From a bacterium (GTDB taxonomy: Bacteria > Patescibacteriota > Minisyncoccia > UBA6257 > GWB1-50-10), in the NCBI GenBank assembly GCA_021824045.1, contig JAKALR010000002.1:1-57923 (forward strand): a DNA stretch of 57,923 nt. The letters run 5' to 3'. The translations under genes and the position numbers were made by a program. Numbering within the stretch: the stretch's first letter is position 1; every line of letters begins with the position of its first letter. Below, in pieces: positions 11,519-57,666 of this stretch. The notes beneath the pieces were generated by a model. It did no database searches. It saw only the letters and a program-made list of their open reading frames with translations, and was not told the DNA's origin.

Positions 11519-12616
11519 ATGGCGATCAACACGAAAGAAGAAGGAGGTCTCATTGAGCAGATTCTGAAAACGAATCACGCGTTTTTGCCGACGCTTCGGA
11601 TCGGCGATTTGGTCGAGGGGAAAGTTTTGGAGAAAAGTTCGGCAAAGCTTTTCATTGACCTCGGCAAGTACGGGACCGGCGCGGTATACCGCGGCGAACT
11701 CCAGAATGCGAAAGAGTACATCAAGAATCTCGCGGTGGGCGACGAAGTCCACGGCAAGGTCATCGATATCGACAACGACGAAGGTCTCGTTGAACTCTCG
11801 CTTTCCGAAGCTGACAAACAGAAGTCATGGACTGAGGCTCAGGAATTAAAAGAAAAGGACGAGGTATTGAAATTGAAGATAACCGGCTTCAATAAAGGCG
11901 GACTCATGACCGACATCAAGGGACTTCCCGCGTTCCTGCCGGTGTCGCAGCTCTCGCAGGAGCACTATCCCAAGGTGAGCGAAGAAGAGAAATCGAAAAT
12001 CGCCCAATCGCTCCAGCTTTTGGTCGGATCCGAGCTCGAGGTCAGAATCATCGATGTGAATCCCCGGACCTCCAAGCTCATCGTTTCCGAAAAGGCGGCT
12101 CAGGAAATGAGCGCGCGGGACTTGGCCAAAAACTACGCCGTCGGCCAGGTGGTTGAGGCCATTATTTCCGGCGTGGCGGATTTCGGCGCGTTCCTCCGAT
12201 TCACCGACAACCCGGCCGTGGAGGGCTTTGTGCATGTTTCTGAAATAGACTGGCGGATTATCGAAAATCCCAAAGAGGTCTTGAAAGTGGACGATGTAGT
12301 GAAGGCCAAGATCGTCGACATCAAGGACGGCAGAATCTCGCTTTCTCTGAAAGCGTTGAAAGAAGATCCGTGGACCGTCGTCGGCGAATACTTCAAAGAC
12401 GGCGAAGAAGTAACGGGCATGGTATACGTCCTGAACCAGTTCGGCGCCATCGTGAACCTGGATCACGATTTCCAGGGAGTTATCAGAATCACTGAATTCG
12501 GCGGTGTGGCGGAAATGAAAAAAGAACTCTCGCAAGGCGAAACATATTCCTTTATAATAGAAAATGTGAAGCCGGCGGAACGGAGAATTAATCTAAAACT
12601 AAAGAAAAGCGTTTAG
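11519..12616 (+). CDS. rpsA: 30S ribosomal protein S1-like (multiple S1 RNA-binding domains)
   Basis: 365 aa with repeated S1-domain signatures (GDLVEGKV, VHGKVIDID, VEAIISGVADFGAFLRF, VTGMVYVLNQFGAIVNL). Confidence 0.8.
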   Translation: MAINTKEEGGLIEQILKTNHAFLPTLRIGDLVEGKVLEKSSAKLFIDLGKYGTGAVYRGELQNAKEYIKNLAVGDEVHGKVIDIDNDEGLVELSLSEADKQKSWTEAQELKEKDEVLKLKITGFNKGGLMTDIKGLPAFLPVSQLSQEHYPKVSEEEKSKIAQSLQLLVGSELEVRIIDVNPRTSKLIVSEKAAQEMSARDLAKNYAVGQVVEAIISGVADFGAFLRFTDNPAVEGFVHVSEIDWRIIENPKEVLKVDDVVKAKIVDIKDGRISLSLKALKEDPWTVVGEYFKDGEEVTGMVYVLNQFGAIVNLDHDFQGVIRITEFGGVAEMKKELSQGETYSFIIENVKPAERRINLKLKKSV

Positions 12617-14547: not shown

Positions 14548-14620
14548 CGGCACGTAGCATAGCGGCTAATGCAACGAGCTTATACCTCGTGGATCGTAGG
14601 TTCGAGTCCTACCGTGCCGA
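14548..14620 (+). tRNA. tRNA-Ile (anticodon TAT)
   Basis: Acceptor CGGCACG/CGTGCCG+A, anticodon stem ACGAG/CTCGT, loop CTTATAC, T arm GTAGG-TTCGAGT-CCTAC. Confidence 0.8.
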
Positions 14621-14633
14621 CTTGCCGGAATCA

Positions 14634-54987: not shown

Positions 54988-54999
54988 GTTTAATGCCGG

Positions 55000-55071
55000 T
55001 GCCCTCGCGAAGAATCGAACTTCGATCCGCGCGTTAGGGGTGCGCTGTTCTGTCCGTTGAACTACGAGGGC
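55000..55071 (-). tRNA. tRNA-Arg (anticodon CCT) with apparent C33
   Basis: Acceptor GCCCTCG/CGAGGGC+A, D arm GTTC..GAAC, anticodon stem GCGC(A)/(C)GCGC, loop CCCCTAA, T arm CGAAG-TTCGATT-CTTCG. Confidence 0.65.
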
Positions 55072-55694
55072 GCTATTTCTTCTGTTATTTTATCAATAAT
55101 CGCAGAAAATTTCTTAAGAAGCAAGCCACTCTTACGGACGCGGATTCGGCACATCCCGTACTTTAATTTCCCATTTTTGGATCCCTTGAGGACATTTACG
55201 CTCGTTTTTCTCGTTGTCAGATTAACGCCGGTTACTTGCGACCAATAGGTGAGGCAAACCTTTTTGTCCAAGTCCTCGTAGATGCGGAGTGATATTTTTA
55301 GATCGTCGTTTGCAACTTGAAAAATATCTTTCAAAATAGTGATGAAAACTCGAACCATTCGAGAATCGGTGTTTGAAAACGTAAAATCCCGTTTGGCACC
55401 CTCAGCCCAGTAGAGAGAAACTCCAATAAGTGACAGTTCTTTTCTTGTGAGTTTATTCACCAAGGCATCGGCGGTTTCTCTGGCTTTCTCCCAGTTTCTT
55501 TCGGACATAATTTTACTGGTATTACGGCGTTCTAGCCATCTTTTTAGATGTTGTTTCTTTATAATAATGCCCCTAATGTATCGGGATGCTGTTGCGGGAG
55601 AAATCCTACATTCCTTACTAATCTCTGAAATACTATGGCCCGTTACCCGCAATCTCTTTATTTTGGATACCATCTCTCTGTCTATAGGTTTCAT
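55062..55694 (-). CDS. HTH plus LAGLIDADG-like domain protein (paralog A)
   Basis: N-terminal HTH (GHSISEISKECRISPATASRYI) and LYWAEGAK (LAGLIDADG-like). The 3' end overlaps the tRNA-Arg 5' end by 10 nt. Confidence 0.6.
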   Translation of the reverse strand: MKPIDREMVSKIKRLRVTGHSISEISKECRISPATASRYIRGIIIKKQHLKRWLERRNTSKIMSERNWEKARETADALVNKLTRKELSLIGVSLYWAEGAKRDFTFSNTDSRMVRVFITILKDIFQVANDDLKISLRIYEDLDKKVCLTYWSQVTGVNLTTRKTSVNVLKGSKNGKLKYGMCRIRVRKSGLLLKKFSAIIDKITEEIAPS

Positions 55695-55776
55695 ACACTT
55701 TCATTATAATGGAATAGACAATATCGTCCAAATACTGCTTTGGATGTATCAATGAATTTTATGATACCATGATTCC

Positions 55777-56094
55777 ATGGCCATTAGGCGGGAAATGCCC
55801 GAGCGGGAAGGATTAAAGATCTCCCGGGAAACCGAAGAAAAAGTGAAGCGAACTATCGCCCGGCTGCGGGATGAAGGATTTGAATTCGACTTCGACGAAA
55901 CGCCGGACACCTACATCATCACAACGAAGGACGAGAACGGAAGGGAAAAGAGCACCCACCTCATGAAGTTGGGCAGCGTCTTGCCGTCCGGAAGTTCTTC
56001 ATATGATATCGAAGGATTCATCGAAGCCCGCTTGCGCTATCCCGATGATGACATTAATATAGCTGTTAGGAAATTGAAGGAAGAAAAGGAATAG
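55777..56094 (+). CDS. Hypothetical acidic protein
   Basis: 105 aa ORF with no recognised motif. Confidence 0.4.
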   Translation: MAIRREMPEREGLKISRETEEKVKRTIARLRDEGFEFDFDETPDTYIITTKDENGREKSTHLMKLGSVLPSGSSSYDIEGFIEARLRYPDDDINIAVRKLKEEKE

Positions 56095-56099
56095 TATAT

Positions 56100-56171
56100 G
56101 CGCCCATAGCTCAGTGGTAGAGCGTTTGCACGACACGCAAAAGGCCCAAGGTTCAATCCCTTGTGGGCGCA
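56100..56171 (+). tRNA. tRNA-Val (anticodon GAC) with apparent C33
   Basis: Acceptor GCGCCCA/TGGGCGC+A, D arm GCTC..GAGC, anticodon stem TTTGC/GCAAA, loop ACGACAC, T arm CAAGG-TTCAATC-CCTTG. Confidence 0.7.
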
Positions 56172-56217
56172 CACCAAGGTGTTTCACATTGATACCCTCT
56201 ATGGTACAATATAATCA

Positions 56218-56901
56218 ATGGAGAGGAAGGTGCTGCGACAAAAAGCAGTGCAATTACGAAAAGAGGGGAAGACATATACCGAGATCCGGAAAATCACCGG
56301 CGCTTTTAATTTGTCTAAAAGCACACTTTCATATTGGTGTGGTGGAATTCCTTTAACTGAGGAGCTCAAAAGAAAAATTGATTCACTGCGAGCCGAGGGT
56401 TCGAGGCGAGGTAGAACGAAAGCAATTGTGACTAATAGGGTTAGGCGGGAGGTTTATTTAAAATCAATCGAGAATAGAATTAGTCATCTTGCTAAGTCTT
56501 TATCTGGGGTGGATACTAAGAAACTTCTCTTGGCCATGCTTTACCTTGGCGAGGGAGCGAAGTGGCGATCTCATCGCAGCTTGCAACTTGGAAATGCAAA
56601 TCCAGAAGTTATTAAACTCTACCTCAATCTTCTAGAAAACTGCTACGGGGTAGATAGGAAAAAATTGAGCGCTATGATTTTTCATAGAGCAGATCAAGAT
56701 TTAACCAAGCTCATTGAGTTTTGGTCCGATACGTCGGGCATACCGATAAAGAATTTTTATTGGAACAAACCGGATTCACGAACGATTGGAAAACCGACGA
56801 CAGCTAACTATTATGGCGTATGCGCCATTTTCGGTCCCAATACGGATATCCAACTGGAATTAGAAGCAATTGCTAAAATGTTCTTTAATGTTTTAAACTA
56901 A
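56218..56901 (+). CDS. HTH plus LAGLIDADG-like domain protein (paralog B)
   Basis: N-terminal HTH (GKTYTEIRKITGAFNLSKSTLSYW) and LYLGEGAKW. Same architecture as 55062-55694. It is sandwiched between two tRNA genes. Confidence 0.6.
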   Translation: MERKVLRQKAVQLRKEGKTYTEIRKITGAFNLSKSTLSYWCGGIPLTEELKRKIDSLRAEGSRRGRTKAIVTNRVRREVYLKSIENRISHLAKSLSGVDTKKLLLAMLYLGEGAKWRSHRSLQLGNANPEVIKLYLNLLENCYGVDRKKLSAMIFHRADQDLTKLIEFWSDTSGIPIKNFYWNKPDSRTIGKPTTANYYGVCAIFGPNTDIQLELEAIAKMFFNVLN

Positions 56902-56908
56902 TCCACAT

Positions 56909-56980
56909 GGGCCTATAGTAAAATGGCTATTACGGGTGCATGGCATGCACCAGGTCGGGGTTCGATTCCCCGTAGGTCCA
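56909..56980 (+). tRNA. tRNA-Ala (anticodon GGC)
   Basis: Acceptor GGGCCTA/TAGGTCC+A with a G3:U70 pair, anticodon stem GGTGC/GCACC, loop ATGGCAT, T arm CGGGG-TTCGATT-CCCCG. Confidence 0.85.
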
Positions 56981-56990
56981 CAAAAACAAA

Positions 56991-57576: not shown

Positions 57577-57666
57577 GGAGGCGTGCGCGAGTGGTTGAAA
57601 CGGACGGTCCTGAAAACCGTTATGCCCGCAAGGGCATCGAAGGTTCGAATCCTTCCGCCTCCGCCA
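57577..57666 (+). tRNA. tRNA-Ser (anticodon TGA), class II, CCA encoded, apparent C33
   Basis: Acceptor GGAGGCG/CGCCTCC+G+CCA, anticodon stem ACGGT/ACCGT, loop CCTGAAA, variable arm ATGCCCGCAAGGGCATC, T arm GAAGG-TTCGAAT-CCTTC. Confidence 0.75.

Follow-up and report, generated by a model that had tools for sequence, protein, structure and literature searches.

The stretch of DNA analysed here (the window, 57,923 nucleotides (nt) long) is contig JAKALR010000002.1 of assembly GCA_021824045.1, a genome of 611,871 bases in 32 contigs that is 97.7% complete; in our comparisons the genome carries the label G000 and the window is its contig C28. Near the end of the window two open reading frames (ORFs), ORF A and ORF B, lie among transfer RNA (tRNA) genes, and their homologs indicate an affiliation with the Patescibacteria, also called the Candidate Phyla Radiation (CPR). 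We conclude that both ORFs are probably free-standing, tRNA-gene-specific, homing-endonuclease-like selfish genes, each encoding a putative nuclease. The predicted protein joins a helix-turn-helix (HTH) of the Tc3/IS type to a single divergent LAGLIDADG-like domain and would presumably act as a homodimer, and each protein lineage belongs with one tRNA species, its ORF lying directly 5' of that tRNA gene on the same strand.

Position of the genes relative to tRNA genes

The two ORFs and their tRNA neighbours are listed below; the coordinates and strands of the two ORFs are those given in an earlier reading of the window made from its sequence alone (the sequence-only reading), and so is the spacing of ORF B between its two flanking tRNA genes.

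55062..55694, minus strand: ORF A (P0001), 210 amino acids (aa); HTH and LAGLIDADG-like domain; family linked to tRNA-Arg(CCU)
54998..55071, minus strand: tRNA-Arg(CCU), with C33; Infernal 55.7 bits; ORF A ends in its bases 1-10, which supply the final codons and the TAG stop
55062..55071, minus strand: 10-nt overlap of ORF A and tRNA-Arg, in which tRNA U8-A9-G10 is the TAG stop, as read from the sequence
56100..56172, plus strand: tRNA-Val(GAC); ORF B starts 45-46 nt downstream
56218..56901, plus strand: ORF B (P0002), 227 aa; HTH and LAGLIDADG-like domain; family linked to tRNA-Ala(GGC)
56909..56981, plus strand: tRNA-Ala(GGC), beginning 7 nt past the ORF B stop; found by ARAGORN and Infernal

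ORF B also has an alternative GTG start at 56230. The claim that the end and stop of ORF A fall within the first 10 nt of a tRNA gene on the same strand was borne out as well, as the TAG stop occupies 55064-55062 and the tRNA begins at 55071. The identity of this tRNA needed some care, for ARAGORN labels it 'Pyl CTA'. Infernal places CCU at positions 34-36, together with C33 and an A31-C39 mismatch, and the tRNA that congeners have at the syntenic site is a plain Arg(CCU) with U33; on these two grounds the gene is tRNA-Arg(CCU), as the sequence-only reading had it, and a suppressor or pyrrolysine tRNA was rejected.

Whole-genome tRNA scanning and tracing of reading frames revealed five paralogs in this genome, each directly 5' of a tRNA gene on the same strand:

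Paralog A: tRNA-Arg(CCU), 10-nt overlap of the ORF end with the tRNA
Paralog B: tRNA-Ala(GGC), 7-nt gap from ORF end to tRNA start
C29:11400-12131: tRNA-Lys(CUU), 0-nt gap from ORF end to tRNA start
C29:15714-16403 (ORF D, Met-linked): tRNA-Met(CAU), 10-nt overlap
C21:1696-2322: tRNA-Tyr(GUA), 18-nt overlap

All five ORFs thus end within a span of -18 to +7 nt around the first base of a tRNA gene on their own strand. By our own arithmetic, the chance of such a position for one random ORF end is 40 x 26 / (2 x 611,871), i.e. ~8.5e-4, and ~4e-16 for five out of five. Other genomes show the same arrangement: 76 of 80 family-A loci in named Patescibacteria assemblies abut tRNA-Arg(CCU), at -51 to +23 nt from the ORF end, and 69 of 76 informative family-B loci in metagenomes abut tRNA-Ala(GGC), at -29 to +21 nt, the tRNA being of the cognate type in every one of these abutting loci. 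The modal offset is -10 in both families (22/76 and 35/69 loci, respectively), and the stop is then nearly always a TAG formed by U8-A9-G10 of the tRNA. That the ORF runs straight into the tRNA, often stopping on these three bases, is a direct observation, and the survey of homologs suggested by the sequence-only reading finds linkage to tRNA genes to be nearly universal and specific for the type of tRNA.

Among the 31 relatives that we compared, other superfamily members precede the genes of tRNA-Gly(GCC), tRNA-Asn(GUU), tRNA-Gln(UUG), tRNA-Trp(CCA), tRNA-Ile(UAU) and tRNA-Val(GAC). No paralog stands directly 5' of tRNA-Val(GAC) in G000; a Val-specific one does so in G007 and G017, and the copy in G002 belongs to the same clade as these two. 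In a maximum-likelihood tree of 29 members, each tRNA type with at least two members forms one clade with 99-100% support. The genes are free-standing, as ORFs A and B lie between tRNA genes and a search with Rfam models found no intron in this region of the window.

So close a pairing of protein clade with tRNA species could also be read at the level of RNA, with the protein binding the adjoining pre-tRNA and aiding its folding, its processing or the splicing of a group I intron in it. LAGLIDADG maturases assist the splicing of organellar introns, a superfamily copy in G005 (locus L026) is followed by a group I intron (RF00028, 53.2 bits) that probably interrupts a tRNA, and several tRNAs of the cluster are odd in carrying C33. 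However, the tRNAs beside all five paralogs are free of introns, G001, although it lacks the protein altogether, has an identical tRNA-Arg, and the N-terminal domain resembles the DNA-binding HTHs of transposases and resolvases, so that we regard a maturase-like helper as quite improbable.

At locus L026 (G005:C2) the ORF ends at 2184 and the intron lies directly 3', at L026:2228-2451; the tRNA there is probably interrupted by it, which would be why ARAGORN missed this tRNA. In addition, no tRNA was detected at the ORF ends of a well-supported clade of four members (L025, L030, L031 and L034, from G009, G010, G013 and G005), where a tRNA-Trp(CCA) lies 560-850 nt downstream of the ORF end; a tRNA with a divergent intron, missed by ARAGORN and Rfam, may lie in between.

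The C33 of tRNA-Arg, which replaces a nearly universal U, is shared by tRNA-Val(GAC) (56100-56172) and by a tRNA-Ser(UGA) at 57577-57666. In the Arg and Val tRNAs it is not an assembly error, since identical variants are present in the closed congeneric genome G001. The idea that the C33 variants are escape alleles was rejected, as they show no consistent relation to the presence of paralogs.

Protein family and predicted fold

The two ORFs had been proposed to be paralogs. Compared directly they are only weakly similar (BLASTP E 1e-6, 22% identity), and their family alignments establish the homology (hhalign probability 99.6%, E 1e-23). Each has hundreds of homologs in CPR metagenomes, labelled 'hypothetical', and a profile of the superfamily matches 9,833 clusters at 50% identity among 1.84 billion representatives (E <= 0.001), by which measure the superfamily is very large and unannotated. 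The odd C-terminal tails in both family alignments are translated tRNA sequence and are explained by the modal stop inside the tRNA. Five pairs of intact copies gave ratios of nonsynonymous to synonymous substitution (dN/dS) of 0.05-0.13, the pair of ORF A and its G005 ortholog giving 0.13; judged by these ratios, the intact copies are under strong purifying selection.

Two regions of each protein could be delimited, i.e. an N-terminal HTH and a short motif further along the chain:

55563..55679, minus strand: N-terminal three-helix HTH of ORF A, about residues 6-44; Pfam and structural matches
55392..55415, minus strand: LYWAEGAK motif of ORF A, residues 94-101
56224..56352, plus strand: N-terminal HTH of ORF B, about residues 3-45; structural match to Tc3
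56539..56562, plus strand: LYLGEGAK motif of ORF B, residues 108-115

Both motifs are as the sequence-only reading described them, and so are the blocks YGMC in ORF A and YGVC in ORF B; the YWS block that it ascribed to both proteins is FWS in ORF B. Within the motif, LY.(A/G)EG.K, the residues Y, E, G and K (Y95, E98, G99 and K101 of ORF A) are invariant over the five paralogs and both families. In models of both proteins the first helix of the LAGLIDADG-like domain carries the motif at its C-terminal end, and the acidic residue that, with a Gly, closes the motif helix of LAGLIDADG-type proteins would be E98 in ORF A and E112 in ORF B.

The fold was predicted with AlphaFold from the family alignments, and neighbours were sought by an exhaustive VIA-align search of solved structures. 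The models have a mean predicted local distance difference test (pLDDT) score of 93.9 for ORF A and 93.0 for ORF B. The HTHs match those of Tc3, IS21 IstA and resolvases with Z scores of 5.2-6.2 and root-mean-square deviations (rmsd) of 1.7-2.5 over both models; model A matches IstA, Tc3 and resolvase HTH domains at Z 5.2-5.5, and model B matches the DNA-binding domain of the Tc3 transposase at Z 6.2 and rmsd 1.8. In agreement with this, Pfam yields HTH matches only, which stay below threshold in the two window proteins (HTH_3 and HTH_23 in ORF A); other family members match HTH_38 (1.2e-8) and HTH_7 (3.4e-7) clearly, and a profile search of the sequences of solved structures returned HTH matches only. 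A search of the window proteins against NCBIfam gave no match above its cut-off.

An HTH of this kind invites the view that the protein is a recombinase and the ORF a minimal insertion sequence, of the transposase or integrase type, with tRNA genes as attachment sites. It is well established that tRNA genes serve as integration targets, the HTH is similar to the ones found in IS21 IstA, Tc3, Sleeping Beauty and serine recombinases, and an Atlas look-alike of the domain lies within a tyrosine-recombinase cluster. Nevertheless, no DDE, serine- or tyrosine-recombinase domain was detected in Pfam, NCBIfam or structure searches, and the five copies are flanked by neither terminal inverted repeats nor target duplications nor leftover tRNA fragments, the last having been sought upstream of each ORF by repeat search and blastn-short. 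Furthermore, the ORF stands 5' of the tRNA, unlike integrases, which insert at the 3' end. We therefore hold a transposase or integrase to be very improbable.

For the C-terminal domain, LAGLIDADG domains rank first in the VIA-align search with each of the two models independently. The top neighbour is I-DmoI (Z 6.9 over 83-84 residues, rmsd 2.9-3.1), followed by WhiA (Z 5.6-6.8), an intein endonuclease domain (6.4), E-DreI (6.0-6.1) and I-Tsp061I (5.9-6.0), with I-Vdi141I, I-MsoI and I-CeuI also among the neighbours of model A only; Z scores of 6-7 have to be read with the reservation that values below 8 may reflect 'a common arrangement'. According to DSSP the domain runs helix-strand-helix-strand-helix-strand-strand-helix, so that the predicted topology is a LAGLIDADG-type core plus an extra helix and strand.

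Because of this reservation on Z, the domain was also compared at the level of sequence profiles, by hhalign of the two C-terminal domains against 17 true PF14528 (LAGLIDADG_3) domains from relatives, with 40 column-shuffled controls. The scores were 25.4 and 26.6 (P 9e-4 and 5.5e-4), compared with a control maximum of 15.8, and the alignment puts E98 and E112 on the canonical Asp of the PF14528 motif. The hidden Markov model (HMM) search that the sequence-only reading had proposed had a mixed outcome: none of the Pfam LAGLIDADG models (_1, _2, _3 and WhiA) matched any of the five paralogs of this genome, ORFs A and B included, or any of 70 family members at E <= 10, and the signal to PF14528 domains is of the weak, profile-to-profile kind. 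Taken together, the structural neighbours and the profile signal give moderate support to the fold that had been proposed, and we describe the predicted protein as remotely LAGLIDADG-like and lying outside the curated models; 'LAGLIDADG-like' is the right wording precisely because no Pfam LAGLIDADG model matches those 70 members.

Presence, decay and movement of the genes

Matches to the superfamily were found in 16 of the 31 relatives, and their distribution is uneven even within the genus. Three congeneric genomes, G001 (closed, 99% complete), G003 and G004, have no copy; they keep the cluster Ser(CGA)-Arg(CCU) / small ORF-Val(GAC)-Ala(GGC)-Ser(UGA) without ORFs A and B, and in them tRNA-Arg has a promoter-like leader of its own. 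The spacing between tRNA-Val(GAC) and tRNA-Ala(GGC) is 2-31 nt in congeners that lack ORF B. G005 has ORF A only, and G007 has ORF A and the Val-specific copy, without ORF B; presence and absence at a syntenic site are hence polymorphic among close relatives. The Met-linked copy, ORF D, is unique to G000, its site being empty in all five congeners, where a spacer of 62-125 nt with divergent promoter-like boxes is found instead. In an evenly drawn sample of 301 genomes from the whole phylum, all at least 90% complete, 77 (26%) have a match, and each of these holds 1-9 copies.

Several copies are decayed, with 1-6 internal stops, and the phylogeny of the copies departs from that of their hosts. 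The Arg-linked copy of G007 groups with that of another genus (G010, genus g3) with 100/99 support, apart from its congeners; it is ~57-59% identical to ORF A, whereas the flanking gene is 82% identical in DNA. Sporadic spread, decay and a phylogeny incongruent with that of the hosts are all features by which homing-endonuclease genes are recognized. The sequence-only reading had left the choice between selfish elements that target tRNA genes and domesticated factors, and the empty syntenic sites, the 26% occurrence, the decayed copies and the disagreement of tree and taxonomy favour the former: a pattern of invasion, maintenance while spreading, decay and loss is expected of active homing-endonuclease genes, and not of a housekeeping factor.

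The domesticated alternative deserves to be stated in full, as it would make the protein a non-cutting, WhiA-like factor whose HTH and degenerate LAGLIDADG scaffold bind the promoter or 5' region of the downstream tRNA gene and so regulate its transcription, any selfish history being past. WhiA, a transcription factor of Gram-positive bacteria, is derived from LAGLIDADG proteins; it is without the catalytic acidic residues, and the lineages that have it conserve it broadly. It likewise combines a LAGLIDADG-type scaffold (DUF199; PDB 3hyi, 3hyj and 8dy9) with an HTH, and it stands among the top structural neighbours at the Z scores given above. The lineages studied here are deeply conserved, with the low dN/dS already mentioned, and the gene is always placed where regulation of the tRNA promoter in cis is possible. 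Yet a closed genome of the same genus manages without a copy, the three congeners keep the tRNA cluster without the ORFs, about three quarters of the sampled high-quality genomes of the phylum have no copy at all, and decayed copies exist. The invariant Glu-Gly-x-Lys would be needless in a purely structural scaffold, and the architecture differs, for in WhiA two LAGLIDADG domains precede a C-terminal HTH, whereas ORFs A and B have one domain, an N-terminal HTH and an invariant Glu, and are patchy within the genus. A present-day regulatory role of this kind is thus, in our judgement, unlikely.

There are also results that weigh against the reading of these ORFs as selfish homing-endonuclease-like genes. 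On the side of the protein, besides the Z scores below 8 and the Pfam models that find no match, a Foldseek search of the whole models against the PDB gave no match at E <= 0.001, with weak OmpA-like and IspF rows only; the extra helix and strand of the predicted topology fall between core strands 3 and 4; and the nuclease and DNA-binding functions of the members are predictions from sequence and models. Strong purifying selection over deep divergences is equally compatible with a protein useful to the host. On the side of the target, tRNA-Arg is identical in G000, which has ORF A, and in G001, where the site is empty. Immunity through a difference in tRNA sequence was therefore rejected for Arg. 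The occupied allele cannot owe its immunity to the body of the tRNA, and the target would need to extend into the replaced upstream flank, whose poor conservation is awkward for a homing site. Finally, the divergence between empty and filled sites is too great for the boundaries of the insertion to be drawn exactly, and no co-conversion tract was seen in the comparisons between them.

Expression, proposed homing and known systems

Of the promoter-like sites in the region, the two with the best match each immediately precede one of the two ORFs:

55703..55730, minus strand: promoter-like site of ORF A, TGGACG-16-TATAAT, 10/12; ends 8 nt before the ATG; consensus match only
56183..56210, plus strand: promoter-like site of ORF B, TTCACA-16-TACAAT with extended TG, 10/12; ends 7 nt before the ATG; consensus match only

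An ATG only 7-8 nt past the -10 box points to mRNAs with no leader or almost none. Over the final 300 nt of ORF A nothing resembling a promoter was seen, and the ORF-tRNA junction leaves no room for a terminator. Three metatranscriptome runs of the same study yielded nothing that aligned to the stretch, a result that speaks neither for nor against expression. Comparison of empty with filled sites shows that the ORF stands in the place of what appear to be the tRNA's own promoter and leader. The tRNA may accordingly be the 3' part of the ORF transcript, and the host may rely on the promoter of the element for that tRNA. RNase P would then separate ORF and tRNA and, in overlapping cases such as ORF A, take the stop codon off the message, which could limit the output of nuclease; the loss of the stop to RNase P, an idea that the sequence-only reading had raised, follows from the geometry of ORF and tRNA.

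As for the spread of the selfish genes that we propose, the enzyme, on meeting a genome without the ORF, would recognise DNA at or beside the 5' end of the cognate tRNA gene and cut there, and repair from the allele that bears the ORF would copy it in, in the manner of intron-less homing. The cutting of the empty allele and the copying by repair are put forward by analogy with phage T4 SegB, a free-standing homing endonuclease encoded in the T4 tRNA gene cluster that undergoes intron-less homing (PMC2330249). Like segB, ORFs A and B lie outside any intron or intein, among tRNA genes, and are present or absent between related genomes (PMC2330249), and by this analogy they would spread by cutting the allele without the ORF, with co-conversion of the flanks. 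On the other hand, T4 SegB is a GIY-YIG enzyme of a phage, whereas ORFs A and B are LAGLIDADG-like, their nuclease activity is a prediction, and they reside in the chromosomes of ultra-small bacteria. They differ further in their exact position at base +1 of the tRNA, in the frequent borrowing of U8-A9-G10 as a stop, and in the many lineages, each tied to one tRNA species.

Single- and double-motif LAGLIDADG enzymes, such as I-DmoI, I-Tsp061I, I-Vdi141I, those of the I-CreI type and the enzymes of CPR rRNA introns (PMC11270868), share with ORFs A and B a motif helix ending in an acidic residue and a Gly. They provide the nearest solved folds (Z 5.5-6.9), and the similarity of profiles to PF14528, weak as it is, exceeds that of the controls. 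Unlike these enzymes, ORFs A and B have no Pfam LAGLIDADG match, contain the additional helix and strand within the core, carry an N-terminal HTH, and are free-standing rather than encoded in introns or inteins; the putative targets are the 5' ends of tRNA genes instead of rRNA or protein genes. The CPR work covered by our literature search deals with rRNA-intron endonucleases and makes no mention of tRNA, and the search, incomplete in coverage, found no description of LAGLIDADG-like genes abutting tRNA genes in Patescibacteria.

It is tempting to go further and to see here a new class of mobile elements, made up of some twelve or more lineages of endonucleases. Each lineage would be co-specialised on its own tRNA species, invading the exact 5' boundary of the tRNA gene, taking over its transcription and using tRNA processing to control its own expression, such that RNase P would free the tRNA, remove the borrowed stop and leave a non-stop mRNA to be rescued and degraded. 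We offer this wider proposal tentatively, and as it stands we doubt it more than we believe it. If it were true, the host would depend on the element for an essential tRNA, and in ultra-small bacteria such elements could do much to drive the turnover of tRNA genes and the appearance of odd tRNA variants.

Should the proteins be active, they would make up a very large family of sequence-specific nucleases in which each lineage has a natural class of targets, the 5' end of one tRNA gene, and which would be of interest to mobile-DNA biology and to the engineering of meganucleases. By occupying a tRNA leader, replacing its promoter and borrowing a stop, selfish genes would also have a new means of persisting in minimal genomes, and the five copies amount to ~0.6% of the DNA of the genome studied here. 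For annotation, about a quarter of the sampled Patescibacteria genomes carry the family, with all its members called 'hypothetical', and gene callers run the ORFs into the tRNAs.

Some further features of the tRNA genes were noted. A 105-aa ORF at 55777-56094, without a Pfam match, stops 5 nt short of tRNA-Val(GAC) and is kept in the congeners G001, G003, G004 and G007 with 71-76% DNA identity; it looks like a second, unrelated small gene abutting the start of a tRNA. Elsewhere in the window, a tRNA-Ile with the anticodon TAT (UAU) at 14548-14621 adjoins tRNA-Val(TAC) and represents an unusual bacterial means of reading AUA; in the relative G017 a superfamily member abuts tRNA-Ile(TAT). Two clearly different types of tRNA-Ser(CGA) occur beside tRNA-Arg(CCU) in the congeners (L037 and L040-L044), with a distribution unlike that of other genes, which hints at recombination within the tRNA cluster. 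In G007 only, a perfect hairpin of ~55 nt, CCCCACACCTAAGCTGCAT...ATGCAGCCTAGGTGTGGGG, lies between two divergent tRNA-Met genes (L234, G007:C41, ~11717-11842).

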